A DNA stretch of 64,000 nt from an uncultured Thermus sp. (lineage in GTDB: Bacteria > Deinococcota > Deinococci > Deinococcales > Thermaceae), in contig CAMTVD010000009.1 of NCBI GenBank assembly GCA_947085095.1, positions 32,199 through 96,198 on the forward strand, given 5' to 3'. The position numbers and the translations under genes were made by a program. Shown here piece by piece: positions 25,158 through 44,424 of this stretch (the stretch's first letter is position 1; each line of letters begins with the position of its first letter). The notes under the pieces are model-generated. The model had not been told where the DNA came from. It saw only the letters and a program-made list of their open reading frames with translations, and did not search any database.

Positions 25158-25183
25158 GCCGTTAGGGGGGTAGAGCCATAGAG

Positions 25184-25210: not shown

Positions 25211-25224
25211 CTCTCCTTCCCAGC

Positions 25225-26922: not shown

Positions 26923-26942
26923 CCCTCATCACCTCCGCCCGC

Positions 26943-26974
26943 AGGCTAAGGGGGAAACGTCAGAGAAGCGTCAA
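26943..26974 (-). promoter_or_regulatory. Putative Pho-box-like activator site plus -10 (TTGACG-N5-CTGACG-N9-TAGCCT)
   Basis: 11-bp direct repeat 9 nt upstream of TAGCCT; GGAGG SD-like sequence downstream. Confidence 0.6.
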
Positions 26975-27043
26975 GAGAAGGGCTGGCAAACGCAGCAAGG
27001 ATCTCCTGGCCCCCGCCGCCCCCGGTCTCGGTATAGTGGAAGC

Positions 27044-28012
27044 ATGGAAATTGAGCGCCGCTTGGTCCTGGAGGTGGTGCGGGTCACGGAGCAGGCCGCC
27101 CTGGCGGCGAGCCGCCTGGCGGGCAAGGGGGACAAGGAGGCCGTGGACGAGGCGGGCACCGAGGCCATGCGCCGGGTGCTCAAGGGGCTTCCCATAAGGG
27201 GCACCGTGGTCATCGGCGAGGGGGAGATGGACGAGGCCCCCATGCTCTATATCGGGGAGGTGCTGGGCCAGGGAGGCCTCGAGGTGGACATCGCCGTGGA
27301 CCCGGTGGAGGGGACCACCACCGCCGCCAAGGGCCTGCCCAACGCCGTCACCGTGATCGCCATCAGCGAGAAGGGGGGGCTCTTCCACGCCCCGGACATG
27401 TACATGGAAAAGCTCATCGTCCCCCCACCCGCCGCCGGGCTGGTGGACCTCACCTGGCCGGTCTCCGCCAACCTCAAGGCCCTGGCCCTGGCCCTGCAGC
27501 GGGCGGTGGAGGACCTGGTGATCGTGGTCCTGGACCGCCCCCGGCACGAGAGGCTCATCCGGGAGATCCGGGAGGCGGGGGCCCGGGTCAAGCTCATCTC
27601 TGACGGGGACGTGATCGCCGCCCTGGCCGCCGCCATCCGGGGCACGGGGGTCCACGCGGTCATGGGCATCGGCGGGGCCCCGGAAGGGGTTTTGGCGGCG
27701 GCGGCCCTCAAGTGCCTGGGGGGGGAGATCCAGGCCCGCTTCACCCCGCAAAACGAGGAGGAAAGGGCGCGGCTTCGGGCCATGGGCGGGGATGAGAACC
27801 GCATCTACCGCACCGAGGACCTGGCCCCGGGGAAGGAGATCGTCTTCGCCGCCACCGGGATCACCGACGGGGACATCCTCCAGGGGGTGCGCTTCTTCGG
27901 CGGAGGGGCCCGGACCCACTCCATCGTCATGGGCCACGCCACCCGCACCGTGCGCTTTATAGACTCCATTCACCTTTTTGAAACGGGCGCCCGGGTCACC
28001 ATCCGGGTATAG
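27044..28012 (+). CDS. glpX: Class II fructose-1,6-bisphosphatase
   Basis: [40 protein letters not shown]; leaderless-type start after TATAGT. Confidence 0.95.
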
Positions 28013-28019
28013 TAAGGGC

Positions 28020-29780
28020 GTGCCCCGGCGCACCTACCTCGAGGCCGAGGGGGAAAGGCTGGCCCTGGACTTCCTGGGGGACGAGCTCAGGGCCTCCGTC
28101 TTCCTCAAGCGTTACGCCCTGAGGGATGAGGAGGGAAGGCTTTTAGAGGCCACCCCGGAGGAAACGTGGCAGAGGCTCGCCCGCCAGGTGGCCCGGGTGG
28201 AGAAGGGGGCCCTTAGGGAGATCCTCTGGCTCCTCTCCGAGTTCCGCTTCGTCCCCGGGGGGCGGATCCTCTTCGGCCTCGGCAACTGGCGGAGGAGCAC
28301 CCTCTTCAACTGCTACTTCCTCCCCATCCGGGAGGACTCGGTAAGGGGCATCGCCCGCTTCCTGGAGGAGGCCATGCGCACCTTCGCCTTTGGGGGCGGG
28401 GTGGGCACCAACGCCGACGTCCTCAGGCCCAAGGGGGCCAGGGTGGGGAACGCCGGGGTGGAGAGCTCGGGGGCAGTGAGCTTCATGGAGCTCTTCTCCA
28501 CCCTGGCGGGGGTCATGGGGAGTAGCGGGGGGAGGCGGGGGGCCCTGATGCTCACCTTCTCCGACACCCACCCCGAGCTTTTGGACTTCCTCCGGGCCAA
28601 GACCGACCCCGCCCGGAGCAAAGTCCGCCACGCCAACATCTCCCTAAGGGCCACGAATGCCTTCCTGGAGGCGGCCCTGGCCGACGAGCCCTGGGAGCTC
28701 CGCTTCACCACCCCCAGGGAGGAGATCCGGACCACCCTCCGGGCCAAGGAGGCCTGGGAGGCGTTGGTGGAGGCCGCCTGGGCGAGCGCCGAGCCCGGCC
28801 TCCTTTTCTGGGACCGCATCCGCACCTGGACCACCGCCCAGTACGGGGGGATGGAGGTGGTGGGGGTGAACGTCTGCGGGGAGGTGCCCATGGAGCCCTA
28901 CGGGGCCTGCAACCTGGGAAGCCTGAACCTCTCCGCCTTCGTCCGGGCCCCCTTCAGCCAGGAGGCCCGGCTGGACTGGGCCGCCCTCGAGGAGGCCACC
29001 CGCCTGGCGGTGCGCTTTTTGGACGCCACCCTTGACCTGGGGAAAAACCGCCACCCCCTTAGGGCCCAGCGGGAGGCCTCCCTGAGAAGCCGCCGCATCG
29101 GCCTTGGGGTCATGGGCCTGGCGGACATGCTGGCCATGCTGGGCCTCCCCTACGGCTCCGAGGCCTCCATCCGCTTCGCCGAGGAGGCCATGCGGCGCAT
29201 CAAGGAGGCCGCCTACCGGGAAAGCGCCCGCCTGGCCCGAACCCGGGGCCCCTTCCCCGCCTTTGATCCCAGGCGGCACCTGGAAAGCCCCTTCATCCAG
29301 GCCCTGCCGGAGGACCTGATCCGGGAGGTGGAAAAGGGCCTCCGGAACGCCGCCCTCCTCTCCATCGCCCCCACGGGCTCCATCTCCATCCTGGCGGGGG
29401 TCACGAGCGGGATTGAGCCCATCTTCGCCCTCACCTACCTGCGCCACGCAGGGGGAAGCGTCTTCCTGGCGGAACACCCCCTCCTCCGGCGCTACCGGGA
29501 GGCCACCAAGGGGGGCCTCCCCGACTGGCCCACCGCCCATCAGGTGGACCCCTTCCAGCGGGTCCGCCTCCAGGCCGCCCTCCAGCGCCACGTGGACCAG
29601 AGCATCTCCTCCACGGTGAACCTGCCCCGGGACACCCCCAAGGAGGTGGTGGAGCGGCTTTTCCTCGAGGCCTGGCGGGAGGGGTGCAAGGGCCTCACCG
29701 TCTTCCGGGAGGGAAGCCGGGAGGAGGTCATTGAGCCCCTGCCCCCCGTGGGGGTCTGCACCTTCTGCCAGACGGCGTGA
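28020..29780 (+). CDS. nrdJ: Adenosylcobalamin-dependent (class II) ribonucleotide reductase
   Basis: FVPGGR, LFNCY, RRGALM, NVCGE active-site loop, ACNLGS, IAPTGSIS, C-terminal CTFC; no adjacent beta subunit. Confidence 0.88.
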   Translation: MPRRTYLEAEGERLALDFLGDELRASVFLKRYALRDEEGRLLEATPEETWQRLARQVARVEKGALREILWLLSEFRFVPGGRILFGLGNWRRSTLFNCYFLPIREDSVRGIARFLEEAMRTFAFGGGVGTNADVLRPKGARVGNAGVESSGAVSFMELFSTLAGVMGSSGGRRGALMLTFSDTHPELLDFLRAKTDPARSKVRHANISLRATNAFLEAALADEPWELRFTTPREEIRTTLRAKEAWEALVEAAWASAEPGLLFWDRIRTWTTAQYGGMEVVGVNVCGEVPMEPYGACNLGSLNLSAFVRAPFSQEARLDWAALEEATRLAVRFLDATLDLGKNRHPLRAQREASLRSRRIGLGVMGLADMLAMLGLPYGSEASIRFAEEAMRRIKEAAYRESARLARTRGPFPAFDPRRHLESPFIQALPEDLIREVEKGLRNAALLSIAPTGSISILAGVTSGIEPIFALTYLRHAGGSVFLAEHPLLRRYREATKGGLPDWPTAHQVDPFQRVRLQAALQRHVDQSISSTVNLPRDTPKEVVERLFLEAWREGCKGLTVFREGSREEVIEPLPPVGVCTFCQTA

Positions 29781-29798
29781 GCCCACCCCAGAAGAGAG

Positions 29799-30473
29799 AT
29801 GACCCGTTACCGCATCGCCGCCAAGCCCTACCTCCCCTACCCCGGGGAGCGCCTGGCCCGCAGGAAGGGCCTTGGAGGGGAGTTTTACGAGCTCAGGCCC
29901 TATGCGGAAGGGGACGAGGTGCGCCGGGTCCACTGGCGGGCCTACGCCAAGACGGGAAGGCTCTACACCCGCCTGGAGACCGCACCGGAAAGGAGCCGCT
30001 TCCGCCTCTTTCTGGACGAGAGCGAGAGCATGCGCCTCCACGGGAAGCTCCTTTATGCGGAAAGGGTGGCGGCCCTCCTCCTCAGGATCGCCCGGCAGGA
30101 GGACCCCAGGGCCCGCCTGGAGCGGGGCCGACCCCAGGACCTCCGCCTGGGAGGAGGGGTCCTGGTCCTCCTCACCGACGGCCTGGACCCCCTCCCCTGG
30201 CCCAGGCTCCTCCCCAGAAGGGTGGTCCTGGTCCAGGTCCTCTCCCCCCTGGAGCTGGACCCGCCCCTAGAGGAGGCTCTCCTCAAGGACGTGGAATCCG
30301 GGGAGACCCTGCCTGTGGGGAAGGAGGAGGTCTTGGGCTACAAGAGGGCCCTGGCGGAGCACCTAAAAGGCCTACGCCTTCTCGCCCTCCTCCGGGGGCG
30401 GTACGCCCTCCTCAAGGTGGGGGAAGCCCCCCTGCCAAGCCTCCTACGCCAGGGCGTTCTGGAACTCCTCTAG
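29799..30473 (+). CDS. DUF58-domain protein
   Basis: EFYELRPY..GDEVRRVHWRAYAKTG, LDESESM, LTDG. Confidence 0.88.
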   Translation: MTRYRIAAKPYLPYPGERLARRKGLGGEFYELRPYAEGDEVRRVHWRAYAKTGRLYTRLETAPERSRFRLFLDESESMRLHGKLLYAERVAALLLRIARQEDPRARLERGRPQDLRLGGGVLVLLTDGLDPLPWPRLLPRRVVLVQVLSPLELDPPLEEALLKDVESGETLPVGKEEVLGYKRALAEHLKGLRLLALLRGRYALLKVGEAPLPSLLRQGVLELL

Positions 30474-32306
30474 CCCCAGCGCCTGAAGCCGCCTGGGGTC
30501 CACCCCCCCCTCCCATCCCGCCAGGCGATGGTAGGCCTTGAGCGCCCCCTGGAAGGCCTCCCTGTCCAGGCGGGCCTCGGCGTTCCCCCGGCGGAAGGGC
30601 TGGAAGAGGCGCTCCGGCAGGCGGTCCTCCTCGGGAGGGATCCCCTCCCGCAGGTTGAAAAGCCGGGTGAGCTGCAGCGTCCTCTCCCCCACCAAAAGCA
30701 TCTCCTCCGGGGCCAAGCGCCAGCCCGTGGCGGCGTAGAGGGCCTCCCGCCACTCCTCGGGGGTCCAGGGGACGAAGTCGCACATCACCAGGCTGTTCAC
30801 GAAGCCCCGCTCCCGGGTCTTGGTCCAGAGCATCCGCACCTTGGCCTCGGAGAGGTCCTCTACGGGCAGGGGGGCGAAGGCCTCCCCGTAGAAGCGAAGC
30901 TCCTCCAGGGCCTTCCCCTCCTTGGTGTAGGCGGTGTCGTGGAGGTTGTGGTTGTGGTCGGCCCCCGTGGGGCTCACCGCATACCCCACCCCCAGGGCCC
31001 GCTTGTACCGGGGGTCGTGCATGGGCACCTCCTGCCCCTTCACGTGCACAGCGAGTTCCGGGTGGCCGAGGGCCTCGGCCAGGCGCCTGGCCCCCAGGGC
31101 CAGAAGGGCCCCAAGCCGCCCCTCCTTCCGGGCCAGGCGCTCAATGGCGGCGATGAGGGCGTCCCCGTTGCCGAAGCGAAGGCCCAGCCCCTCGTCGTCC
31201 AGATACCCCTTTTCCACCGCCTCCATGGCGCAGGCGATGGTGACCCCCACCCCGATCACGTCCAGGCCGTACTGGTTGCAGAGGGTGTTGGCCTTGGTGA
31301 CGGCGTAGGGGTCGGTGACCCCGCACGTGGAGCCCAAGGCCCCCAGCCCCTCGTACTCCGGCCCCCCGTACTCGGGGCGGACATCGTACTTGCCGGTCCC
31401 CTCAATCTTCACCACCTGCTTGCAGCGGATGACGCAGGCGTAGCAGGTGTCGCGGCCGGTGCGGATGCCAAGAGCGTCCAGGCTGGTGCCGTCCAGGGCC
31501 TCCGCCCCCTCCAGGAAGCCGTCCAGGAAGTTGTGGCTGGGGAGGACCCCCCGGAGGTTGAAGGGGCGCACCGCGCCCACGGTCCCCATGGTGATGAGGC
31601 CCGCCGCCCGGTCCATCCGCTCCTTGGCCATGCGCCGGGCCAGCTCCTTGAGGAGGGCGGGGTCGTGGTAGGCGGGAAGGGTCTTCCTGTCGGCCCGGGC
31701 GGAGACCGCCTTGAGCCCCTTGGCCCCCATGACCGCCCCCAAGCCCCCCCGCCCGGCGAAGTGGGCCAGGTCGTGGATCACGTTGGCGGTGAGGACCTGG
31801 TTCTCCCCGGCCAAACCGATCTGGGCGATGCGGGTTTGGGGCCCGTGGACCTCCTTGATGAGGGCCTCCACCTCCAGGGGGTCCTTCCCCCACAGGTGGG
31901 AAGCGGGGTGGATGGCCACCTCCCCCCCCTCCACGTGGAGGTAGACGGGGCCCTCCGCCTTCCCCAGGACCACCAGGGCGTCCACCCCGGCGTTCTTCAG
32001 CTCGGCCCCGAAGAACCCCCCGCCCTCGGCGTCCCCGTACCCCCCGGTGAGGGGGCTCTTGGCGGCCACGGTGTTGCGGCCCGAGCCGGAGACGGGGGTG
32101 CCGGTCAGGACCCCGGGGGCGAAGACCAGGAGGTTCTCCGGGCCCAGGGGATCCGCCCCTTTGGGCACGTGCTTGAGGAGGAGGTAGGCCGCTAAAGCCC
32201 GCCCCCCTAGGTACCTGCGCCAAAAGGCTTCCCCGTAGCTCTCGTACCATACCTCGCCTTGGGAAAGGTCCACGAAGGCCACCCGGTCGTGATATCCCTT
32301 GGGCAT
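30444..32306 (-). CDS. Aldehyde:ferredoxin oxidoreductase family protein (tungstopterin/molybdopterin, 4Fe-4S)
   Basis: KSPLTG, AGRGGLGAVMGAKGLKA, CYACVIRC, GPEYE, FNLREG; ATG at 32306. Confidence 0.92.
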   Translation of the reverse strand: MPKGYHDRVAFVDLSQGEVWYESYGEAFWRRYLGGRALAAYLLLKHVPKGADPLGPENLLVFAPGVLTGTPVSGSGRNTVAAKSPLTGGYGDAEGGGFFGAELKNAGVDALVVLGKAEGPVYLHVEGGEVAIHPASHLWGKDPLEVEALIKEVHGPQTRIAQIGLAGENQVLTANVIHDLAHFAGRGGLGAVMGAKGLKAVSARADRKTLPAYHDPALLKELARRMAKERMDRAAGLITMGTVGAVRPFNLRGVLPSHNFLDGFLEGAEALDGTSLDALGIRTGRDTCYACVIRCKQVVKIEGTGKYDVRPEYGGPEYEGLGALGSTCGVTDPYAVTKANTLCNQYGLDVIGVGVTIACAMEAVEKGYLDDEGLGLRFGNGDALIAAIERLARKEGRLGALLALGARRLAEALGHPELAVHVKGQEVPMHDPRYKRALGVGYAVSPTGADHNHNLHDTAYTKEGKALEELRFYGEAFAPLPVEDLSEAKVRMLWTKTRERGFVNSLVMCDFVPWTPEEWREALYAATGWRLAPEEMLLVGERTLQLTRLFNLREGIPPEEDRLPERLFQPFRRGNAEARLDREAFQGALKAYHRLAGWEGGVDPRRLQALGLEEFQNALA

Positions 32307-32339
32307 AGGCCGAGTATACCTCCCCCTAAAATGGGGGGC

Positions 32340-32876
32340 GTGTGGACCCTCACCCTGGACACCGCCACCCCCTACCTCTCCTTGGGCCTCTTCCGCGGGG
32401 AAGAGGGCCTGGGGAGGGTGGTGCGGGTGGAGAGGCGGCATGAGGAGGTGCTCTTTGACCTCCTGGAGGAGGCCCTGCGGGAGGTGGGAGCCAGGCGGGA
32501 GGAGATCGGCGCCCTGGTCCTGGGGGAAGGCCCAGGCTCCTACACCGGCCTGCGCATCGCCTTGGCGGCGGGGCAGGGCATCGGCCTGGCCTTGGGGGCC
32601 AGGGTCTACGGGATAAGCTCCCTCCTGGCCGCCGCCTGGCCCCACCTGGAGGAGGGGAAGCCCCTCACCCCCCTCTTCACCGCCAAAAACCGGCTCTATT
32701 ACGGGGCCACCTACGTCAAGGAAGGGGGAAGGCCCAAGGTCCTCCTTCCCCCCAAGAAGATGCGGGCGGAGGAGATTCCTTCGGGGTCCCACCTCCTGGA
32801 CGCCCCTCCGGACCCCAGGGGCCTATATGAGCTCCTTCCCTTCGCCCGGGAGGGGGTAGAGCCCCTCTACCTCTAA
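32340..32876 (+). CDS. tsaB: tRNA threonylcarbamoyladenosine biosynthesis protein TsaB
   Basis: LTLDTAT, GEGPGSYTGLRI, C-terminal EPLYL. Confidence 0.9.
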   Translation: MWTLTLDTATPYLSLGLFRGEEGLGRVVRVERRHEEVLFDLLEEALREVGARREEIGALVLGEGPGSYTGLRIALAAGQGIGLALGARVYGISSLLAAAWPHLEEGKPLTPLFTAKNRLYYGATYVKEGGRPKVLLPPKKMRAEEIPSGSHLLDAPPDPRGLYELLPFAREGVEPLYL

Positions 32877-32916
32877 GGGTCCTCAGCCCTTCCCGGCGAA
32901 AGCCAGGGCGGGGTCC

Positions 32917-33570
32917 TTAGTCGGTGGCCACCCCCGGCCATCTGGGCAGGCGGTACTGGTAGCTGGGGAGGGGTTCCTGGAAGGGCACCCCCTTCAGCCT
33001 CTCCGCCATGAGGACCAGGTTCTCCCCGGCGATGCGGGCATCCTCCACAAGCTCATGGTTGTCCCCAGGAGCGGCAAGGCCCCGCCGGTGGGCGTAAACC
33101 AGGCCCAGGGGGGCGAGGACGAAGCCCATGTAGCTGAGGGGCAGGAGCATCTGGGCGAGGGCCTGGGATGCCCCTTCCTCCTCGGCCACGGCCAGGAGGG
33201 CCATGGGCTTGCCCAGGTTGAGGAGGCCCTGGTTCTCCATGGAGGTCATCCGCTCCAGGAGGGCCTTCATCCGGGCGGAGACGCTGAACCAGTAGACCGG
33301 GGTGGCGAAGACCACGGCGTTGGCGTTGAGGATCCGCTCCGCCACCTTGCCAAACCCGTCCCAGGGCCCCTGAACGCAGGTCTCGGGGCCGCAGGAAGCG
33401 GGGTCTAAGGAATAGTTCCCTGCGCACAGGGGGAAGGGGTGCTTCACCAGGTCCAGGCGCTCGGTCTCTGCCCCCTTGCGCCTGGCCGCCCCCAGAACCT
33501 CGTCTAAAAGCTCTGCCGTAAACCCATCCGTCCGCGCCGATGCGTTGACGCCGAGCACGCGTAAGCCCAT
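32917..33570 (-). CDS. Flavodoxin / NADPH-dependent FMN reductase (iron-sulfur flavoprotein-like)
   Basis: VLGVNASARTDGFT, ATPVYWFSVSARMK. Confidence 0.85.
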   Translation of the reverse strand: MGLRVLGVNASARTDGFTAELLDEVLGAARRKGAETERLDLVKHPFPLCAGNYSLDPASCGPETCVQGPWDGFGKVAERILNANAVVFATPVYWFSVSARMKALLERMTSMENQGLLNLGKPMALLAVAEEEGASQALAQMLLPLSYMGFVLAPLGLVYAHRRGLAAPGDNHELVEDARIAGENLVLMAERLKGVPFQEPLPSYQYRLPRWPGVATD

Positions 33571-33597
33571 AGATATCACCCAGGCGCTAAACCGCCT

Positions 33598-33870
33598 TTA
33601 GTTTAGCACGCGCACTTTGGGGGCGGAAGAGCCCGGCCACGAACTCCCCCATGCCCCGGGCCCGCACGGGGTAGCCCCCATAGACTCCCTCCCCCGCCAC
33701 CGACCGCCACCCGGGTGGTGCGGGAGAGGATCTCCCCCTCCTTGAAGAGGGGCCTGAGCACCCGGCTTGGGGTCCCAGTCCCCGGGATCGGGAAGCCGCC
33801 TGGGGTCCACCCCAAGAAGGGCCGGGGCGCAGGCAGTGAAAAGAAAGAGTGGGGGTAAGAGGCGCTTCAC
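33598..33870 (-). pseudogene. Internally deleted, frameshifted remnant of a lipoprotein, probably CrtC/AttH lipocalin-like
   Basis: Lipobox FTAC N-terminus; then VLRPLFKEGEILSRTTRVA in a second frame; then VAGEGVYGGYPVRARGMGEFVAG in a third frame. Confidence 0.6.
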
Positions 33871-33932
33871 ATTGCTATCATTCTACCCATAGAACCTATC
33901 CCCACCCTGCGGCCTGGGTTACAGTAAGGCCC

Positions 33933-34688
33933 GTGACCGACACCCACGCTCACCTGGACTACCTGGAGCCCGAGGAGCTTTCGGAGGTCAGGGCCCACCT
34001 CCCCGAGCTCAAGGCCGTCCTCAGCCTGGGGGTGGACCCCTCCCGCTGGGAAAGGACCCTGGAGCTAGCCCAAGGGAATGTCTATGCGGCCCTGGGCCTC
34101 CACCCCACCTCCGCCCACCTCCTCTCCCCCGAAACAGAGGCGGCCCTACGGCACTACGCCCAAGAAGCAAGCGTCTTGGCCATCGGGGAAACGGGGCTTG
34201 ACTACTACTGGACCCCGGAAACCAAGCCCGCCCAGCTCAGGGCCCTGGACTTCCAGGCCGCCCTGGCCGAGGAGCTGGGGCTTCCCCTCATCCTCCACGT
34301 GCGGAGCAAGGACGGGAAGGCGGAGGAGGACCTGGCCTCCTGGCTCCTCCTCTACAGGCCCAGGAAAGCGGTCCTCCACGCCTACGGCGGCCACCCCGCC
34401 CTGGAGGAGGCGGGGCTAGAGGTGGGGGCCTACTTCAGCTTCGCCGGGCCCCTCACCTACAAAAAGAACGAGGCCTTAAGGGAGGCGGCCCGGAGGCTTC
34501 CCCGAAAGAGGCTTCTGGTGGAAACCGACACCCCCTTCCTCCCCCCCGAGCCCCATAGGGGCAGGCGGAACCGCCCCCACTACGTGCGCTACACCCTAGA
34601 AAAGCTAGCGGAAGTTTTGGGCCTTGCCTTTTCGGAAGCGGAAGCCCTTACCGACGAAAACGCCAGGGCATGCTTTGGCTGGACATGA
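33933..34688 (+). CDS. TatD family hydrolase
   Basis: DTHAHL, GLHP, IGETGLDY, LHVR, VETDTP; GTG start 7 nt after TACAGT. Confidence 0.92.
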   Translation: MTDTHAHLDYLEPEELSEVRAHLPELKAVLSLGVDPSRWERTLELAQGNVYAALGLHPTSAHLLSPETEAALRHYAQEASVLAIGETGLDYYWTPETKPAQLRALDFQAALAEELGLPLILHVRSKDGKAEEDLASWLLLYRPRKAVLHAYGGHPALEEAGLEVGAYFSFAGPLTYKKNEALREAARRLPRKRLLVETDTPFLPPEPHRGRRNRPHYVRYTLEKLAEVLGLAFSEAEALTDENARACFGWT

Positions 34689-34724
34689 AGCCCCTTTCCC
34701 TCGCCGGGGGGCCACCGGCTCGGC

Positions 34725-34753
34725 TTGACCCCAGGGGGGGAAGCCCCTAAACT
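34725..34753 (+). promoter_or_regulatory. sigma70 promoter (TTGACC-17-TAAACT) for the aspS leader
   Basis: Near-consensus hexamers with exactly 17-nt spacing. Confidence 0.75.
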
Positions 34754-34763
34754 GAGGGCCAAC

Positions 34764-34793
34764 ATGTGCCCGCGTTCCCGTAATAACACCTAG
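34764..34793 (+). CDS. Putative 9-aa leader peptide MCPRSRNNT (tandem Asn codons)
   Basis: ATG TGC CCG CGT TCC CGT AAT AAC ACC TAG just after the predicted transcription start. Confidence 0.6.
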   Translation: MCPRSRNNT

Positions 34794-34795
34794 CA

Positions 34796-34842
34796 GGGGG
34801 GCCAGGGTCTAGCCCCCCCGGCGCCCTATGGCCGGGGGGGTT
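34796..34842 (+). promoter_or_regulatory. Mutually exclusive antiterminator/terminator-like hairpins (attenuator)
   Basis: GGGGGGC(34796-802):GCCCCCC(34812-818) competes with CCCCCCCGGC(34813-822):GCCGGGGGGG(34831-840). Confidence 0.6.
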
Positions 34843-34859
34843 CCGCTTAGGGAGGGAAG

Positions 34860-36128
34860 ATGCGCATCTTGGTCAAGGACTTGCAAGCTCACGTGGGCGA
34901 GGAGGTGGAGCTTTTGGGGTTTCTGCACTGGCGCAGGGACCTGGGCAAGGTGCAGTTCCTCCTCCTCAGGGACCGAAGCGGGGTGGTCCAGGTGGTCACG
35001 GGGGGGATGAGGCTTCCCCTGCCCGAGTCCTCCCTGAGGGTCAAGGGGGTGGTGGTGGCGAGCCCCAAGGCCCCGGGGGGCCTCGAGGTCCACGCCAAGG
35101 AGATAGAGGTCCTCTCCCCCGCCCTGGAGCCCACCCCGGTGGAGATCCCCAAGGAGGAGTGGCGGGCCCACCCCGACACCCTCCTGGAGTACCGCTACGT
35201 CACCTTAAGGGGGGAGAAGGCCCGGGCCCCCCTCAGGGTGCAGGCCGCCTTGGTGCGGGGCTTCCGCCGCTACCTGGACCGGCAGGACTTCACGGAGATC
35301 TTCACCCCCAAGGTGGTGCGGGCCGGGGCGGAGGGGGGCTCGGGCCTCTTCGGGGTGGACTACTTTGAGAAGCGGGCCTACCTGGCCCAGTCCCCCCAGC
35401 TCTACAAGCAGATCATGGTGGGGGTCTTTGAGCGGGTCTACGAGGTGGCCCCGGTGTGGCGCATGGAGGAGCACAACACCAGCCGCCACCTGAACGAGTA
35501 CCTCTCCCTGGACGTGGAGATGGGCTTCATTGGGAGCGAGGAGGACCTCATGCGCCTGGAGGAGGAGCTCCTCCAGGAGATGCTGGAGGAAGCCTTGTCC
35601 TCGGCGGGCCGGGAGATCGCCCTTTTAGAAGCGGAGTGGCCCTCCATCCCCAAGGAGATCCCCCGCCTGACCCACAAGGAGGCCCGCAGGCTCCTCAAGG
35701 AGGAGCTGGGCTACCCCGTGGGCCAGGACCTCTCGGAAGAGGCGGAAAGGCTCCTGGGGCAGTACGCCAAGGAACGCTGGGGCACGGACTGGCTCTTCCT
35801 CACCCGCTACCCTCGGGCCATCCGCCCCTTCTACACCTACCCTGAGCCAGACGGCACCACCCGGGGCTTTGACCTCCTCTTCCGGGGCCTGGAGATCACC
35901 TCCGGGGGACAACGCATCCACCGCTACGAGGACCTGTTGGCAAGCCTGGAAGCCAAGGGCATGGACCCGGAGGGCTTTAGGGGCTACCTGGAGGTCTTCA
36001 AGTACGGCATGCCCCCCCACGGGGGCTTCGCCATCGGGGCGGAGCGGCTGACCCAGAAGCTTCTAGGCCTGCCCAACGTGCGCTACGCCCGGGCCTTTCC
36101 CCGGGACCGGCACCGGCTCACCCCCTAA
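34860..36128 (+). CDS. aspS: Non-discriminating aspartate--tRNA(Asp/Asn) ligase (short archaeal-type AspRS2)
   Basis: 422 aa with no GAD insert; YLAQSPQLYKQ, EEHNTSRHLNEY, GMPPHGG, PKAPGG anticodon-domain loop with Pro. Confidence 0.92.
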   Translation: MRILVKDLQAHVGEEVELLGFLHWRRDLGKVQFLLLRDRSGVVQVVTGGMRLPLPESSLRVKGVVVASPKAPGGLEVHAKEIEVLSPALEPTPVEIPKEEWRAHPDTLLEYRYVTLRGEKARAPLRVQAALVRGFRRYLDRQDFTEIFTPKVVRAGAEGGSGLFGVDYFEKRAYLAQSPQLYKQIMVGVFERVYEVAPVWRMEEHNTSRHLNEYLSLDVEMGFIGSEEDLMRLEEELLQEMLEEALSSAGREIALLEAEWPSIPKEIPRLTHKEARRLLKEELGYPVGQDLSEEAERLLGQYAKERWGTDWLFLTRYPRAIRPFYTYPEPDGTTRGFDLLFRGLEITSGGQRIHRYEDLLASLEAKGMDPEGFRGYLEVFKYGMPPHGGFAIGAERLTQKLLGLPNVRYARAFPRDRHRLTP

Positions 36129-36131
36129 AAG

Positions 36132-36159
36132 CCCCGTCCTGGCCTAGGCCAGGACGGGG
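36132..36159. terminator. Perfect 28-bp palindrome between convergent aspS and sdhB
   Basis: CCCCGTCCTGGCCT/AGGCCAGGACGGGG. Confidence 0.65.
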
Positions 36160-36171
36160 ACCCCGAAATCC

Positions 36172-36870
36172 TTAGAAGCGGTCAAAGAGGATGGCCCGCT
36201 TCACCTCCTCAATGAGCTGGGTCACGGGGATCTCCCGGGGACAGGCCTCGGTGCAGTTGTAGGCGGTGCGGCACCGCCAGACCCCGCTCCCCGAGCCCAG
36301 GGCCTGGAAGCGCTCCCTCTTCCCCCGGTCCCGGGAATCAAAGATGAAGCGGTGGGCCTGGACGATGGCCGCGGGGCCCAGATACGCCCCGTTCACCCAG
36401 AAAACGGGACAGCTGGTGGTGCAGGAGGCGCAGAGGATGCACTTGGTGCCGTGGTCAAACCGCTCCCTTTCCTCCGGGGACTGGAGCCTCTCCCGCTGGG
36501 GCGGGGGCTCCTCGTTGATGAGGTAGGGCTTCACCGCCCGGTAGGCGGCGAAAAAGGGCTCCATGTCCACCACCAGGTCCTTCTCCACGGGAAGGCCCCG
36601 GATGGGCTCCACGGTGATCACGCTCCCCAGGTCCTTGACCAGGGTTTTGCAGGCCAGGCGGTTCCTGCCGTTGATGAGCATGGCGTCGGAGCCGCAGATG
36701 CCGTGGCCACAGCTCCGCCGGAAGGCCAGGGTGCCGTCCTGGTCCCCCTTGACCTTGTGCAGGAGGTCCAGAACCCGGTCCCAAGGCTCAGCCTCCACTT
36801 GGTAGGTGCGCCACTGGGGCTTGCCCTCCTTGTTGGGATCAAAACGGAGCACCTTGAGGGTTACCTGCAT
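36172..36870 (-). CDS. sdhB: Succinate dehydrogenase iron-sulfur subunit
   Basis: RRSCGHGICGSD, CILCASCTTSCP, CRTAYNCTEACP. Confidence 0.96.
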   Translation of the reverse strand: MQVTLKVLRFDPNKEGKPQWRTYQVEAEPWDRVLDLLHKVKGDQDGTLAFRRSCGHGICGSDAMLINGRNRLACKTLVKDLGSVITVEPIRGLPVEKDLVVDMEPFFAAYRAVKPYLINEEPPPQRERLQSPEERERFDHGTKCILCASCTTSCPVFWVNGAYLGPAAIVQAHRFIFDSRDRGKRERFQALGSGSGVWRCRTAYNCTEACPREIPVTQLIEEVKRAILFDRF

Positions 36871-36887
36871 GCCGCCTCCTCTACCTC

Positions 36888-38621
<1,734 letters not shown>

Positions 38622-38622
38622 A

Positions 38623-39018
38623 TCACTTCACCTCAAAATCGTGGTTGAAAAGGCTGAGGCTCCCCAGGATGAAGAGGAAGGCGATGAGGCTGTAGACCAC
38701 CACCTTGGTCCAAAACCGCTTAGCGGGATCCCGGATCCAGTCGTCCATCACATAGCGGAGCCCGTTAGCCCCGTGCAGAAGGCCCAGGGCCAGCATGAGC
38801 CAGTCGTAGATTTTCCAGGTGGTCTGGGAAAGTCTCTGGGCCACGTAGTCGTAATCTATCTTGTTCAGGTCCATCACGATGGCGTTCATCCACATGTGGC
38901 CGATGACGAGGAAGACGAGGACCACCCCGGAGATGCGCATGAAGACCCACCAGTAAAGCTCCAGGTTGGAGCTGGCCTCGAGCCGCGCCTCCTGGTACCG
39001 CTTGGACTTAATCGCCAT
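38623..39018 (-). CDS. sdhD: Succinate dehydrogenase hydrophobic anchor subunit
   Basis: MRISG, HGANGLR, three TM segments; ATG at 39018. Confidence 0.9.
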
Positions 39019-39373
39019 GGCCGCCTCCCAGAATCCCGCCCCCGATCTTGAGCAAAAAGGGCAGGTAGAAGACCACAAAGAGGACCCAGACCCCGTACCA
39101 GAGCTGGCGCTGGTAGCGCACCCCCCACGGGGTGAAGTCCATGAGGATGATCCTCAGGCCGTTGAACCCGTGGTAGAGGACTCCAGCGATAAGGAGAAGG
39201 AGCCCGATCTGAAACACGGGCTGGTGGTAGAACTTCATGAGGGCATTGGAGACCTCCGGTCCCCACATGGCGCTACTGATGTTGGCCACGTGGAGCATCA
39301 GGAAGACCACGATGCCCAGGCCTGAGATCCGGTGCAGGTAAAACGCCCACTGCCCTTCTCTTCCCCTGTACAT
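39008..39373 (-). CDS. sdhC: Succinate dehydrogenase cytochrome b556 subunit
   Basis: LHRISG, YHGFNGLRIIL. Confidence 0.92.
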   Translation of the reverse strand: MYRGREGQWAFYLHRISGLGIVVFLMLHVANISSAMWGPEVSNALMKFYHQPVFQIGLLLLIAGVLYHGFNGLRIILMDFTPWGVRYQRQLWYGVWVLFVVFYLPFLLKIGGGILGGGHGD

Positions 39374-39572
39374 GGCACCTCCTTGCCGGAGGCCATCATA
39401 CCACCCTCACCGCGGCCCCAAAGGTTCCCCAGGGCAAAAAGGCCACCATATACCCCCTCCCTGTATCTAGAGTCCACCAGGACGAGAAAACCCCCCAAAG
39501 CCCCCCACCCCCCCGCACCCCGGGGGTGCCCCCCTGAAGGAAGAAGGGGGATTCCCGCGCCAGGACAAGGTA

Positions 39573-39601
39573 TTGACAGGGGGGGGGAGGGGGGGCATAA
39601 T
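39573..39601 (+). promoter_or_regulatory. sigma70 promoter TTGACA-17-CATAAT with G9-A-G7 spacer
   Basis: Consensus -35, near-consensus -10, 17-nt spacing. Confidence 0.8.
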
Positions 39602-39651
39602 GGGGGGCGTGCCGTGGGGAATACCCCGGGGGGCACGGGAAGGAGGTGGTC

Positions 39652-40089
39652 ATGGTGGAACTCTTTGGATTCGGTCCTCACTTGATGGTGGACGGCTACG
39701 ACGCCAATCCCGAGAAGCTCCGGGACGCTGAGCTGGTGCGGCGGGTTCTGGACGAGCTCCCCGAGGAGATGGAGATGACCAAGGTGCTTCCCCCCTTCGT
39801 CTACAGCTATGGCCCCGGGGGGGAGGACGGGGTCACCGGGGTGGTGATCATCGCCGAAAGCCACATCGCCATCCACACCTTCCCCAAGAAGCGCTTCCTT
39901 TCTATAGACATCTTCTCCTGCAAGGCCTTTGACATGGCCAAGGCCTTACGCAGGCTGGCCGAGACCTTTGAGATCGGCCGCTACGAGACCCACATGATCC
40001 ACCGAGGCAAGGAGTTCCCCAAGGACCCCGAGCTGGCCCGCAAGATCGTCCTGGGGGAGCGGGAGTACCTGGAAGCCCGCGTAAGCTGA
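39652..40089 (+). CDS. speD: Pyruvoyl-dependent S-adenosylmethionine decarboxylase family proenzyme (substrate could be SAM or arginine)
   Basis: FGPHL, GVTGVVIIAESHIAIHTFP autocleavage motif, DIFSC; AGGAGG SD. Confidence 0.88.
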   Translation: MVELFGFGPHLMVDGYDANPEKLRDAELVRRVLDELPEEMEMTKVLPPFVYSYGPGGEDGVTGVVIIAESHIAIHTFPKKRFLSIDIFSCKAFDMAKALRRLAETFEIGRYETHMIHRGKEFPKDPELARKIVLGEREYLEARVS

Positions 40090-40104
40090 ACCCACCCCTT
40101 CCAG

Positions 40105-40128
40105 CCCCGGGTCCGCCCGGGGTCTTTT
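40105..40128 (+). terminator. Intrinsic terminator
   Basis: CCCCGGG-TCCG-CCCGGGG-TCTTTT. Confidence 0.75.
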
Positions 40129-40177
40129 CATGATAGGCTCATCCTTGCTCCCTAGCCTTGATGGAGGAGGCTAAGGT

Positions 40178-41323
40178 ATGGTGCGAAAACTCCTCGCGGT
40201 AGCGCTTCTCGCTCTCGGTGTGGCACTGGCCCAAGGCTTCAGGGGCCTCTCCCTGGGCACCCCCTATCCCGAGATGGGGGTCCAGCCCGGGGAGAGCGTG
40301 AGCCTGACCCTCGTGGTGAAGAACCACGGGCTTCCCCCCGGGGTGGTCCGCCTCACCCTGGCCGAGGTTCCCCCGGGCTGGCAGGCCAGCCTCATGGGAG
40401 GTGGCCGGCTGGTGCGGGCGGTCCACCTAGCCCCCGACGGGGAGGCCACCCTCACCCTGAAGCTCCAACCCCCTAAGGAGGTGAGGCCCGGCACCTACCG
40501 CTTCCTGGTACGGGCCGAGGGCCTGGGGCAAACCGCGAACCTCCCCATAAGCCTGGTGGTGGGCCAGGGCCTGCCCCAGCGCCTCACCCTGGAGGCCGAG
40601 CTCCCCATCCTCAAAGGCCCCCCCACCAGCTCCTTCCGCTACCGGGTCACCCTGAGGAACGAGTCTGACCGGGACCTCCTGGTTTCCCTGGAATACGAGG
40701 CCCCCAAGGGATTCCAGGTCACCTTCACCCCCGCCTTCGGCGCGCAACAGGTGACGAGCCTGCCCATCAAGGCCGGGGAGAGCAAGGACCTGGACGTGGA
40801 GGTCTCCCTGCCCAAGGAAACCAAGGCGGACACCTACGCCCTCACCCTGAGGGCCCTGGCTGGGGAGGCGAAGGCGGAGCTGCCCCTGACCCTCGAGGTC
40901 ACTGGACGCCCCGAGGTCCGCTTCGCCACCAAGGAGGGGCGGCTTTCCGGCCAGGTCACGGCGGGGCGGGAGAACCCGGTGAAGCTTTTGGTGAAGAACG
41001 AGGGGAGCGCCCCCGCCAAGAACCTCTCCTTCAGCGCCATGGAGCCCTCGGGCTGGGAGGTGAAGTTTGAGCCGGAGAAGATAGACCTCCTGGAGCCCGG
41101 CAAGGAGGAGGAGGTCACCGCCCGCATCAAGCCCTCCCCCAAGGCGGTCACCGGGGACTACATGGTGACCCTCTCCCTGCGGGGGGATGAGGGCATCTCC
41201 GAGAGCCTGGACTTTAGGGCCACGGTGGTGCGCTCCACCCTCTGGGGCCTGGTAGGCGTGGGGCTCATGGCCGCGGCCCTCCTGGTCCTGGGCTTCGCCG
41301 TGAACCGCTTCGGCCGGAGGTAG
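40178..41323 (+). CDS. Membrane-anchored protein with repeated Ig-like (NEW3-like) domains, ABC-associated
   Basis: Signal peptide, three Ig-like repeats (V.N.G...P.GW...L.PGE...GDY), C-terminal TM helix. Confidence 0.78.
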   Translation: MVRKLLAVALLALGVALAQGFRGLSLGTPYPEMGVQPGESVSLTLVVKNHGLPPGVVRLTLAEVPPGWQASLMGGGRLVRAVHLAPDGEATLTLKLQPPKEVRPGTYRFLVRAEGLGQTANLPISLVVGQGLPQRLTLEAELPILKGPPTSSFRYRVTLRNESDRDLLVSLEYEAPKGFQVTFTPAFGAQQVTSLPIKAGESKDLDVEVSLPKETKADTYALTLRALAGEAKAELPLTLEVTGRPEVRFATKEGRLSGQVTAGRENPVKLLVKNEGSAPAKNLSFSAMEPSGWEVKFEPEKIDLLEPGKEEEVTARIKPSPKAVTGDYMVTLSLRGDEGISESLDFRATVVRSTLWGLVGVGLMAAALLVLGFAVNRFGRR

Positions 41324-41326
41324 CCC

Positions 41327-42250
41327 ATGGCGGTCATCGTGACCCGGGGCCTCACCAAGCGCTACGGGCGCGTGGTGGCGGTGGAGGACCTCAACCTGGA
41401 GGTGGCGGAAGGGGAGGTCTTCGGCCTCCTGGGCCCCAACGGCTCCGGCAAAACCACCACCATCCTCATGCTCCTGGGCCTCACCGAGCCCACCTCCGGG
41501 GAGGCCCGGGTGCTGGGCCTGGACCCCATGCGGGAACCCCTGAAGGTGAAGGCCAAGGTGGGCTACCTCCCCGACCAGGTGGGTTTTTATGGCGAACTCA
41601 CCGCTTGGGAGAACCTGCGCTACACCACCAGGCTTTTGGGCCTTCCCGAGGCCGAGGCCAAGGCCCGTATGGAGGAGGTCCTTAGGCGCATGGGGCTCTG
41701 GGAGGTGAAAGACCGCCGGGTTTCCGCCTTCAGCCGGGGGATGCGCCAGCGCCTGGGCCTGGCGGAGGTGCTCCTCAAGAGGCCCAAGGTGGCCATCCTG
41801 GACGAGCCCACCCTGGGCCTGGACCCGGAGGCCGCCCGGGAGTTCTTGGGGCTCATCAAGGGCCTAAAAGCGGAGGGGATCACCGTCCTCCTCTCCAGCC
41901 ACCTCCTCCACCAGGTGCAGGAGATCTGCGACCGGGTGGGGCTCTTCCACAAGGGGCGCCTGGCCCTTTTGGGCACGGTGGAGGAGCTTTCCGCCCGGGT
42001 TTTGGGCGGGGGGTACGAGGTCCTGGTGGAGGCGAGCCCGGGCCTAAAGGATGCCTTCCAGGCCGTGGAAGGGGTGAGCCGGGTAGAGGGGGAGGGGGGC
42101 CGTTACCGGGTGTTCGCCACCCGGGACGTGCGCCAGGAACTCGCCCGCGTGGCGGTGGAACACGGGGGGCTTTGGGGCCTAGCCCTGCGGCGGCCCAGCC
42201 TGGACGAGGTTTACGCCCACTACTTCAAGGAGGTGGCCCATGCGGCGTGA
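41327..42250 (+). CDS. ABC-2 type transporter ATP-binding protein
   Basis: [26 protein letters not shown]. Confidence 0.93.
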
Positions 42251-43196
42251 GGGTTCTCCCTGGACCGGGCTCTGGGCGGTCTTCTTCAAGGAGATGGCCG
42301 ACCACCTCTCGGGGCTCAGGATGCGGATCCTCGAGGGCCTCATCCTCCTTTCCGCCCTGGCCGCCGTCTACACCGGCACCCAGACCCTGCGCCAGACCGT
42401 GGGGGAGGACCCTTACCTCTACCTCAAGCTCCTCACCACCGCCCAGGACCCCCTCCCCTCCTTCGTGGGCTTCCTCTCCTTCTTTGTACCCTTGGCGGCC
42501 ATCGCCCTGGCCTTTGATGCGGTGAACGGGGAGTACGCCCGGGGCACCCTCTCCCGGGTCCTCTCCCAGCCCATTTACCGGGACGCCCTCCTTTTCGGCA
42601 AGTTCCTGGCGGGGCTTGGCACCATGAGCGTTCTCCTCCTGGCCCTGCTGCTCCTGGTGCTGGGCCTGGGCCTCTTCACCCTGGGCGTGCCCCCTGGGGG
42701 GGAGGAGGTGGCCCGCATCCTCTTCTTCCTCCTGGCCACCCTGGCCTACGCCGGGGTCTGGCTGGCCCTGGGCCTCCTCTTCTCCGTCCTCTTCCGTCAG
42801 CCCGCCACCGCCGCCTTGGCGTCCATCGGGGTCTGGCTCTTCTTCGCCGTCTTCTTCCCCATCCTCACCGACCTGGCCGCCACTGCCCTCCTCCTCCAGG
42901 CCGACCCCTTAGACCCGGAAAGCCAGCTCCGCCAGGCCAACCTGGCCCTATGGTTTTCCCGCCTCTCCCCCAACACCCTCTTTGCCGAGGCCCTCACCGC
43001 CATCCTGAACCCGGCGGTGCGCTCCCTGGGCCCCATCCTCATCACCCAGCTGGAGGGGGCGGTCCTGGGCACGCCCCTGCCCCTAGGCCAGAGCCTCCTC
43101 CTCATCTGGCCCCAGCTCACGGGCCTCTTCGCCCTGGCGGTCCTCCTCTTCACCCTGGCCTATGTGGCCTTCCAGCGCCAAGAGGTGAGGGCCTAG
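42240..43196 (+). CDS. ABC-2 type transporter permease
   Basis: [23 protein letters not shown], multiple TM helices. Confidence 0.9.
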
Positions 43197-43208
43197 GTCC
43201 TGGTCCTC

Positions 43209-43235
43209 AAGGCCCCCGCTGCGGCGGGGGCCTTT
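43209..43235 (+). terminator. Intrinsic terminator
   Basis: AAGGCCCCCGC-TGCG-GCGGGGGCCTTT. Confidence 0.7.
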
Positions 43236-43353
43236 CCTGGCTAAACCTGGGCTTGGCCAGCCTTCCTCGGAAACAGGGTAAAGCCCCCCTCCACCCCCCA
43301 CCAGCGGGGGAAGGGAAAACACACCCAGATCAGGCGCCTTGGGGCACGGATGC

Positions 43354-43722
43354 TTAGTCCAGCCACTCCGTGGCGTAGGCGCTGGTCTTGGGGATGATGC
43401 AGAGGAACTCCACCGGCTCCTCGCCCTCGTTCACGTAGGCGTGGGGGGTTTCCGGGGGAATGAACACCGACTGCCCCGCGGCAACCTCCCGCACCTCGTC
43501 GCCCAAAAGGACCTTCATGCGCCCGGAGAGCACGTACTGCTCGTGCTCAATGGTGGGGTGCTTGTGCTTGGGGATCCGCCCCCCGGGCAGGAGGGTGAAC
43601 TTGCGGAGGATGAAGTGGGGGGCCCCGTCCTCGGGACCGATGAGCACCTGGATGAAGGCCTTCTCCCCCCGTTCCACGGGGCGGGCCTCGAGGCTCGCCA
43701 CCTGCTTGACCACGGGCTTCAT
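43354..43722 (-). CDS. Cupin-domain protein
   Basis: HKHPTIEHEQYVLSG, FIP..TPHAYVN; ATGA overlap with the upstream gene. Confidence 0.88.
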   Translation of the reverse strand: MKPVVKQVASLEARPVERGEKAFIQVLIGPEDGAPHFILRKFTLLPGGRIPKHKHPTIEHEQYVLSGRMKVLLGDEVREVAAGQSVFIPPETPHAYVNEGEEPVEFLCIIPKTSAYATEWLD

Positions 43723-44345
43723 GCCGCCCATTGTAGCAGAAGGGCCTCCACGTCCTCGTCCGTCACCTCGCCGAAGTCCATGTAGTAGGCTCCCACCGCG
43801 GCAAAGTCGGGAGGGGTAGAAAGGGCCAGAGCCTCCGCCCTCTCCTTTAGCCTCTCCATCGCCTCGGGGCTGGCCACGGGCACGGCCACCACCACCCTCC
43901 TGGGCTCCTCGGCAAGGACCACGCTTAGAGCCGCCTCCACCGTGGCCCCGGTGGCGATGCCATCGTCCACCAGGACCACGTCCCGGCCCTTCAGTGAAAC
44001 CTTGGGCCGGACCTTCCGGTAGCGCTCCGCCCGCTTGCGGATCACCTCCCTCTGCCGGGCCGCCTCCCGCTCCAGGTAGCTTTGGTCCGCATACTGTAAG
44101 GCGTAGGGCTTGAGGACCAGCTCCCCCCTTTCCCCCACCGCCCCCAGGGCGAACTCCGGGTTGCCGGGGGCCCCCACCTTGCGCACCAGGACCACGTCCA
44201 GCTCCCCCCCCAGCCTCCTGGCCACCTCGTCCGCCACCACCACCCCACCCCGGGGAATCCCCAGGACCACGGGACGCTCCAAGCCCAGGGGCTTTAGGGC
44301 CTCGGAAAGAAGGGCACCGGCATGCCGACGATCGCGGAAGCGCAT
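43719..44345 (-). CDS. Phosphoribosyltransferase family protein
   Basis: FRDRRHAG, PRGGV, VLVDDGIATGAT PRPP motif. Confidence 0.9.
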   Translation of the reverse strand: MRFRDRRHAGALLSEALKPLGLERPVVLGIPRGGVVVADEVARRLGGELDVVLVRKVGAPGNPEFALGAVGERGELVLKPYALQYADQSYLEREAARQREVIRKRAERYRKVRPKVSLKGRDVVLVDDGIATGATVEAALSVVLAEEPRRVVVAVPVASPEAMERLKERAEALALSTPPDFAAVGAYYMDFGEVTDEDVEALLLQWAA

Positions 44346-44424
44346 GGAAAACCTCCTCCTCCATGCTACACCCTGGAGGTCTTGAACTCGGTATAAGGCT
44401 TTGGTAGCGTGAGGAGGAAGGAGG

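Follow-up and report, generated by a model that had tools for sequence, protein, structure and literature searches.

Classical leader-peptide attenuators, those of the trp, his, leu, thr and ilv kind, govern biosynthetic operons by means of a mini-open reading frame (mini-ORF) and mutually exclusive hairpins, in the order promoter, ATG, hairpin, Shine-Dalgarno (SD) sequence. In the Escherichia coli pheST attenuator (pheM leader peptide; Rfam Phe_leader) a synthetase gene is controlled through its cognate codons, and Tsubouchi et al. are said to have reported in J Biol Chem in 2005 leader-peptide attenuation of the Thermus thermophilus lysine cluster. The closest counterpart of the element treated here has been listed for Deinococcus deserti: Deide_10019, the putative leader peptide of a non-discriminating aspartyl-tRNA synthetase (AspRS), is read from a leaderless transcript whose start was placed by differential RNA sequencing (dRNA-seq) at the A of the ATG, and attenuation was proposed (de Groot 2014, Genome Biol Evol 6:932, PMC4007540, Tables S9 and S10). 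The main text of that paper shows cysS only, and for the AspRS leader it gives peptide and target, with no structure, comparison or experiment. Mycobacterial polycysteine attenuators similarly use a leaderless short ORF, through whose translation downstream genes are informed of the supply of one amino acid (bioRxiv 10.1101/834739), but the abstract describes no terminator/antiterminator pair. Here we analyze the leader of aspS2, the gene for the non-discriminating AspRS, in a 64,000-nucleotide (nt) stretch (the window) of contig CAMTVD010000009.1 from an uncultured Thermus sp.

The aspS2 leader is real and conserved and has the build of a textbook attenuator, with one unusual trait, the loss of the U-tract throughout the genus. 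The best reading is that in Thermus it senses Asn-tRNA (in relatives, Asn and Asp supply) and controls the non-discriminating AspRS; we put at about 0.7 the probability that it is a ribosome-mediated leader-peptide attenuator of aspS2, orthologous to the Deinococcus leader rich in Asn and Asp (N/D) codons. A first-pass annotation of the window had proposed an asparagine-sensing attenuator at this place, and knew of no description for this gene. The latter statement has to be withdrawn, since the D. deserti orthologue is already in Table S9 of the 2014 study (PMC4007540). For Thermus itself, our literature search, which left most subscription journals outside, found no paper describing this leader.

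Every element of the first-pass description was found in its place (Table 1). The mini-ORF reads ATG TGC CCG CGT TCC CGT AAT AAC ACC TAG and lacks an SD of its own, so that its translation would need leaderless-type initiation; the transcript would start at about 34760-34762, leaving a near-leaderless 5' untranslated region of 2-4 nt. The claim that AAT is rare in this DNA was borne out by the codons of 58 mechanical ORFs of at least 250 amino acids in the window, where AAT makes up 32 and AAC 335 of 24,014. The spacer from segment B to segment C is 9 nt and the loop between C and D is 8 nt. The product of aspS2 matches NF003483, aspartate--tRNA(Asn) ligase, at 558.9 bits (7.4e-168; cut-off 353) and TIGR00458 at 394.4 bits (cut-off 368.4).

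Table 1. Features of the aspS2 leader and its gene (positions of the window)
Feature	Positions	Strand	Remarks
-35 hexamer TTGACC	34725-34730	+	Flagged by the promoter scan
-10 hexamer TAAACT	34748-34753	+	Spacer of 17 nt from the -35 hexamer; ATG 10 nt further on
Leader mini-ORF, ATG to TAG, MCPRSRNNT	34764-34793	+	9 codons; TAG at 34791-34793
Regulatory codons AAT (34782-34784) and AAC (34785-34787), Asn-Asn	34782-34787	+	
Possible segment A, TGCCC	34767-34771	+	Codons 2-3 of the mini-ORF; could pair with the G-run; weak in the window
Segment B, GGGGGGC	34796-34802	+	Antiterminator 5' arm; 2 nt after TAG; pairs with 34812-34818
Segment C, GCCCCCCCGGC	34812-34822	+	Shared arm: antiterminator 3' arm and 5' arm of the terminator-like hairpin
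Segment D, GCCGGGGGGG	34831-34840	+	3' arm of the terminator-like hairpin
Tail TTCCGCTT	34841-34848	+	4 T in 8, just 2 adjoining the stem; not a canonical U-tract
aspS2 SD, GGGAGGG	34850-34856	+	Predicted to be mostly unpaired in every modelled state
aspS2, archaeal-type non-discriminating AspRS	34860-36128	+	Regulated gene; 422 amino acids; profile matches

All 32 genomes of the genus carry aspS2, and 30 of its loci entered the comparison. All 30 share one layout, TTGAC[CG]-17-TA[AG]A[CG]T, a mini-ORF of 7-10 codons, G5-6C, C7GG and CCG7, with a constant distance of 10 nt from the -10 hexamer to the ATG. The mini-ORFs themselves come in 24 distinct sequences encoding 21 distinct peptides, in which the constant features are M-(R/C/G)-P near the start and Asn, while the remainder varies. 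Among the 24 distinct leaders, 8 have AAT as their first Asn codon and 16 have AAC; it is followed by AAC in 15 leaders, by GAC in 5 and by GAT, GAA, GCC or CGT in one each. In 19 of the 24 the stop lies three codons beyond the first Asn. Length differences between the mini-ORFs amount to whole codons only; in an ORF with one extra codon the stop directly adjoins the G-run, and the distance from Asn to the G-run is kept at 8-9 nt. Asn and Asp codons make up 0.24 of the mini-ORF codons, compared with 0.045 in AspRS2 and 0.013 off-frame. What is conserved is a codon-level signal, AAY followed by [A/G]AY, with T/C wobble in a peptide that otherwise varies.

The leader stays with aspS2 when its surroundings change. 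The 120 nt upstream of the -35 hexamer fall into seven unrelated classes (20, 5, 1, 1, 1, 1 and 1 of the 30 loci), with the break at the -35 hexamer, so the constant leader belongs to aspS2 and not to its neighbor. Within the 2.08-Mb assembly the pattern G6C..C7GG..CCG7 is unique (one forward, no reverse match and none for a backwards control), and a covariance model of the leader finds one strong match in the genome, at 91 bits. A named set of 34 loci from Thermus species, Thermaceae and Trueperaceae, which overlaps the 83-locus set described below and is not independent of it, has the layout in 34 of 34; a regular expression finds 33, and the remaining locus, with a GTG start and the peptide MNTHLNNNDY, was recognized by eye. 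Named records with the pattern include T. igniterrae, caliditerrae, altitudinis, scotoductus, tenuipuniceus, thalpophilus, composti, parvatiensis and arciformis, among others.

Beyond the genus, 112 of the 121 genomes sampled from the order have aspS2, covering 28 of 28 genera in five families, and we compared 83 aspS2 loci from the five families (the 30 of the genus and 53 further upstream regions). A promoter-proximal mini-ORF with in-frame Asn/Asp codons, together with alternative hairpins whose arms co-vary, was found at 82 of the 83; the alignment across relatives that the first-pass annotation had called for thus upholds the Asn-codon ORF and both hairpins, in the genus and outside it. 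A regular expression for the promoter and first ATG matches 81 of 83, all with the TTGAC-type -35 hexamer; at one further locus (L052), cut at the -35 hexamer, the leader was seen by eye. Of the 81 ORFs picked by position, 80 have at least one Asn codon and 77 at least two Asn/Asp codons, and the N+D fraction by family is 0.18-0.46, where AspRS2 has 0.045 and the other two frames of the same DNA have 0.013. Peptides in relatives include MLRADNNL, MFWTDNNY, MLRRMDDNS, MRGLLNNDR, MALAASRNNDT, MIAANNNVNDDPC, MFAALNNDNDDSR, MVTVLTRNNRNDDDN and ...ANDDNLEGLGA.

These peptides bear on the proposal that Asn is the amino acid sensed: Asn codons are present in 30 of 30 genus loci, as that proposal has it, but the leaders of relatives read Asp codons too. 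AspRS2 is described as charging both tRNA(Asp) and tRNA(Asn) (PMC6523644), so that the sensor in those relatives would read both amino acids.

The same locus series links the Deinococcus form stepwise to the Thermus form. The two are alike in the regulated gene, the promoter-proximal ATG, the N/D-rich peptide and the mechanism proposed; the leader lies directly upstream of the orthologous aspS and is present in all five families sampled. The D. deserti peptide MFAALANNNDNDPH can be set beside MFAALNNDNDDSR of locus L076, and family f3 has peptides similar to the one published. In the Deinococcus form the ORF has 13-17 codons with 4-7 N/D codons, the ATG follows the -10 hexamer at 7 nt (Deinococcus-like family), a clear fourth segment is provided by a CCC(C)...GGGG hairpin that spans the stop codon, and the tail is T-rich; the Thermus form, by contrast, has 9 codons with 2 regulatory ones, a distance of 10 nt and no T-tract. 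The pheST attenuator is likewise a leader-peptide attenuator of an aminoacyl-tRNA synthetase gene, but it has an SD for pheM, a canonical terminator, one amino acid to sense and a synthetase with one tRNA substrate; an Rfam scan at E up to 10 found no relation between it and the Thermus leader in sequence or family. Where the classical attenuators control biosynthetic operons, the aspS2 leader precedes a synthetase feeding tRNA-dependent Asn synthesis, and its tail is poor in U; mini-ORF, exclusive hairpins and order of parts are the same.

The two helices that compete for segment C have free energies of -16.2 (B:C) and -25.8 (C:D core, 37 C) in the window and of -16.4 (antiterminator) and -24.6 kcal/mol (terminator; 37 C parameters) over the genus, and in every genus the terminator is the stronger, as in classical attenuators. 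Its arms co-vary between genera (C7GGC/GCCG7, C5GATAC/GTATCG5, C5GGTTC/GAACCG5, C5GGTC/GACCG5, CCCGGTT/AACCGGG): positions 6-10 from the base are occupied by CG, GC, AT and TA pairs, while the C-run/G-run base is kept. Stems were aligned from the base for this comparison, the MAFFT realignment of the covariance model having carried a register error between genera. The hairpin finder takes canonical stems only, so that 111 of 111 canonical positions are given by construction and the informative test is the misfit of swapped arms: arms exchanged between species fit at 52 +/- 7 of the 111 positions, and none of 5000 shuffles reaches the observed 111. The antiterminator arms co-vary as well (GGGGGGC:GCCCCCC, GGGGGT:ACCCCC, GGGGGTA:TGCCCCC, GGGGGAAGG:CCTTCCCCC, GGGAAG:CTTCCC), the cognate duplexes averaging a free energy of -15.68 against -13.95 +/- 0.31 with swapped partners (0 of 3000 shuffles).

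A consensus fold of the 30 genus leaders by RNAalifold recovers C:D, with compensatory changes at the basal pairs 54:85 (6 sequences) and 55:84 (3). It also contains a weak A:B helix, columns 8-13 with 36-41, whose pair 13:36 is changed on both sides in 8 leaders; in the window this pair, one of the five of the helix, is G:A and broken. In this fold the helix between codons 2-3 and the G-run would be a fourth segment as in trp, for which the modelled signal is weak; in the Deinococcus-like family that role falls to the hairpin spanning the stop codon. In a single-sequence fold the mini-ORF also pairs at long range with the region around the aspS2 start; this pairing was discarded, as it is absent from the 30-leader consensus.

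The elements suggest the following course of events. Transcription would start 2-4 nt before the ATG, and the 9-codon mini-ORF would be translated without an SD. When Asn-tRNA(Asn) is scarce, the ribosome would wait with AAT or AAC in its A site and its front edge at about 34794-34797, leaving B (34796-34802) free; B would pair with C (GCCCCCC) once C has been made, the stronger C:D hairpin would be blocked, and polymerase would continue into aspS2. When Asn-tRNA is plentiful, a ribosome at TAG would cover B and C would pair with D (34831-34840); C:D would then lower expression by premature termination or by making polymerase pause at length immediately ahead of the ribosome-binding site of aspS2. 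More AspRS2 would give more Asp-tRNA(Asn) for GatCAB and hence more Asn.

The front edge of a ribosome lies some 12-13 nt beyond the first base of the codon in its A site. Counted from the first base of the codon, B is 14 nt from AAT, 11 nt from AAC and 5 nt from TAG, and by this arithmetic B would be free with the ribosome at AAT (front at about 34794-34795), would have 1-2 G covered at AAC, and would be fully covered at TAG. B:C would then be possible only with a ribosome held at the Asn codons, and C:D would form otherwise. The first-pass model, in which a ribosome stalled at the Asn codons permits expression and one at the stop codon permits termination, therefore keeps its sensing half: the geometry fits, and the ORF, the Asn codons and the hairpins are conserved. 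Its termination half fails to find its usual sequence in Thermus. Conserved in-frame regulatory codons, mutually exclusive helices with a shared arm and the geometry are all as in classical attenuators; within the genus a GC-rich hairpin followed directly by a U-tract is not found.

Several points weigh against a working attenuator of the kind we propose. The clearest is the tail: at least 5 T in the 8 nt after the hairpin occur in 0 of the 30 genus leaders (mean 1.9 T), and a terminator-like scan requiring that number does not flag the hairpin of the window. In vitro, deletion of the polyU of a T. aquaticus terminator lowers termination from 37% to 4%, according to a preprint (10.64898/2025.12.25.696493). 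The output step is therefore the weakest link. The two regulatory codons, with three codons from the first Asn to the stop, leave a tight window that depends on the footprint arithmetic. The core stems are invariant in the genus, so that co-variation within it comes down to two basal pairs and the weak A:B helix. The shuffle controls take no account of relatedness, which together with clade-specific lengths of the G-run and C-run inflates the antiterminator test. Folding energy of the whole leader is unexceptional for DNA of 68% GC (z = -1.31; 18 of 200 shuffles at least as stable). Finally, one AT-rich locus (L061; family f2, genus g27) is the sole one of the 83 without an N/D leader.

The first-pass annotation had given the weak U-tract as a caveat for this locus; it proves to be a trait of the whole genus, set against at least 5 T in 8 at 23 of 24 loci from the other (sister) genera of families f1 and f4. 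The commonest tails in the genus are CCAAACCT and CCAACGCT, and that of the window is among the more T-rich ones. The T-run is found at 5 of 5 loci in f5, 7 of 10 in f2 and, by script, 10 of 12 in f3, where three hairpins were mis-picked (loop limit), two of them with fewer than 5 T, and where by eye those loci are T-rich. A T-run after C:D outside the genus indicates that the ancestral device was a standard transcription attenuator. One metagenome-assembled genome named Thermus sp. (locus L105) has an ancestral-looking form, with the leader MRCGNLNP, a shorter C5GGTC/GACCG5 hairpin and the T-rich tail CTTTTCCT; among 13 Thermus-named records it is the only one with a T-rich tail. Its short stem and T-rich tail indicate that tract loss and stem lengthening go together.

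We commit to attenuation through the C:D hairpin as the output, by weak or assisted termination or by pausing. A more specific proposal, that the Thermus attenuator works without a U-tract, the hairpin having been lengthened (C5/G5 to C7GG/CCG7) and the T-run lost while regulation was kept, is tentative, and we think it rather doubtful. In vivo, the T. aquaticus preprint finds polyU at 49 of the 131 sharp 3' ends that are linked to hairpins (10.64898/2025.12.25.696493), so that hairpin-linked ends lacking polyU are common in that species. In many leaders of the genus the tail can pair with the spacer that precedes C7, bringing the end of the helix to 0-9 nt from the SD; the signal is modest (cognate difference in free energy -9.45 against -8.26 with swapped tails; 4 of 2000 permutations). 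Control by occlusion of the SD, as in translational attenuators of the erm/cat type, was set aside, the two states being alike when modelled at 37 and 70 C and the consensus fold having no SD pairing.

In four hot-spring metatranscriptomes, assembled contigs cover the leader and the gene and break at the hairpin borders 34811/34812 and 34840/34841; such breaks are expected from an inverted repeat and mixed strains, and contigs cannot show starts, ends or levels. One contig, with a loose end at window position 34811, carries a variant leader ending Leu-Asn-Asp-Ala-stop before the same G-run, which points to a related strain with the N-D form in that hot-spring sample.

Since the output is where the evidence is thinnest, a possible objection is that Thermus has the same sensor with another output, C:D acting without intrinsic termination through hindrance of the 30S subunit near the SD, Rho/NusA-dependent termination or mRNA stability. 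This would agree with a genus in which no locus has a T-rich tail and all have ORF and hairpins, with the longer genus hairpin and the tail-spacer pairing that brings the helix so near the SD, with the shorter C5/G5 hairpin of L105 going together with CTTTTCCT, and with the polyU requirement of the Taq polymerase in vitro (10.64898/2025.12.25.696493). Against it, the modelled probability that the SD is unpaired at 70 C is the same with the ribosome at Asn (0.73) and at the stop (0.72), as means over the 30 leaders in an equilibrium model; there is no C/U-rich anti-SD partner besides segment C, the consensus fold leaves the SD unpaired, and the tail of the window (TT..CTT) is similar to that of the ilvB leader of the same genome, TTTGGCTTT. 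We regard another output as unlikely. That the leader is a relic in Thermus, inherited and no longer regulating, with aspS2 read through constitutively, we hold to be very improbable. The genus-wide loss of the T-tract could be so explained, and the presence of asparaginyl-tRNA synthetase (AsnRS) in 30 of the 31 other genus genomes, by which charging of tRNA(Asn) does not wholly depend on AspRS2, would fit; but a dead element should decay, and here ATG, Asn codons, G6C, C7GG and CCG7 are kept at 30 of 30 loci while the rest of the peptide, spacers, loops and upstream gene change.

Many synthetase genes in other bacteria are controlled by leader RNAs that bind a protein or a tRNA, and with control of this kind so usual elsewhere the ORF might be incidental to an RNA bound by AspRS2 as feedback or by tRNA in a T-box-like contact; the hairpin loops of the genus are indeed C-rich and moderately conserved. 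Yet the region has no Rfam match, T-box included, at E up to 10, the loops have no conserved GUU or GUC, and the conserved letters behave as codons do, with third-position wobble, in-frame insertions and deletions and a stop always at the G-run, so that we give this explanation very little credence. Nor is the hairpin easily assigned to the neighboring gene. A TatD-like gene ends at 34688 on the same strand, and a chance ORF might lie beside the terminator or insulator hairpin of that gene; however, a conserved promoter sits between the TatD-like gene and the hairpin, the leader remains with aspS2 across the seven flank classes, and the ORF recurs at 82 of 83 loci, which makes a chance arrangement exceedingly improbable. 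A ribosome-mediated attenuator of aspS2 therefore remains our preferred reading.

Below the single strong match of the covariance model, the next matches in the genome, at about 24 bits, are the leaders of ilvB and lysJ. The former (L086:1511-1640, minus strand; contig C4) has a promoter, the near-leaderless mini-ORF MRSVLALSLALVLIVGPAGGRV, rich in Leu, Val and Ile, the hairpin CCCCCCGG/CCCGGGGGG and the tail quoted above, directly upstream of the gene for the acetolactate synthase large subunit (ilvB; TIGR00118, 1.6e-227), and it looks like a branched-chain amino-acid attenuator. The latter (L087:1499-1600, minus strand; contig C20) has a promoter, the mini-ORF MRAWGKT, a hairpin and CTTTTCTTT, followed by lysJ (NF042418, 2.7e-224), and is possibly a lysine-related leader. 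Both share mini-ORF, exclusive hairpins and order of parts with the aspS2 leader. No comparable leader was found at gatB, asnS or aspS1 of relatives.

In its own assembly, which is 93% complete, we found no match for the bacterial-type aspS1, for asnS or for gatB. Since 30-31 of the 31 other genus genomes have them, their absence is probably a gap, and a single one might account for both aspS1 and asnS, which are separated by 2-3 kb in relatives. There was no match for asnA in the assembly, and matches to the asnB family stayed below the cut-off, which is consistent with tRNA-dependent Asn synthesis. We considered whether loss of the leader or of the tract is linked to the presence of AsnRS and dropped the idea, there being no pattern, with asnS in 112 of 121 genomes of the order; g27, the genus without the leader, has no asnS match in 2 of 2 genomes, and genome G119 lacks asnS and has the leader.

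At four loci of family f5 (L048, L049, L050 and L052) a second small ORF, led by an SD and ending (S/P)-R-D-stop, follows the N/D attenuator; it has CTCGAG repeats on either side and then a second hairpin with a T-run, all upstream of aspS2, and may be a tandem second switch. In the window, the gene upstream of the leader encodes a TatD-family hydrolase (33849-34688, same strand as aspS2). A promoter scan of 20 kb (25001-45000) flags just 2 promoter-like sites, against 1.0 +/- 1.1 in shuffled sequence: that of the leader and TTGACA-17-CATAAT at 39573-39601 (+), with 11 of 12 positions matching. The minus-strand or overlapping ORFs at 34589-34789, 34809-35171 and 34828-35010 have no Pfam match. 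When 33500-36500 was searched against Rfam with cmscan (E up to 10), 10 weak matches came up, of which none lay in 34700-34860 or reached the gathering score.

The leader device is ancestral to the whole Deinococcus-Thermus group and not a curiosity of one species, and mini-ORFs of this type escape gene callers and Rfam. If the Thermus attenuator does work without a U-tract, it would be a strongly conserved natural leader that reports termination by a hairpin alone or with the help of factors, or else pausing, at 70 C. It could then account for part of the hairpin-linked 3' ends without polyU in T. aquaticus, and with its two sensing codons and a decision window of three codons no shorter amino-acid attenuator would be known. 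Being compact and genetically tractable, the Thermus form lends itself to asking whether a thermophile polymerase can be stopped by a hairpin without a U-tract. To our knowledge, the regulation of the pathway of tRNA-dependent Asn synthesis has not been worked out. On our reading the leader would tie the first committed enzyme of that pathway to the charging of tRNA(Asn), and in relatives of tRNA(Asp) too; such a tie would be a neat feedback loop for the pathway.

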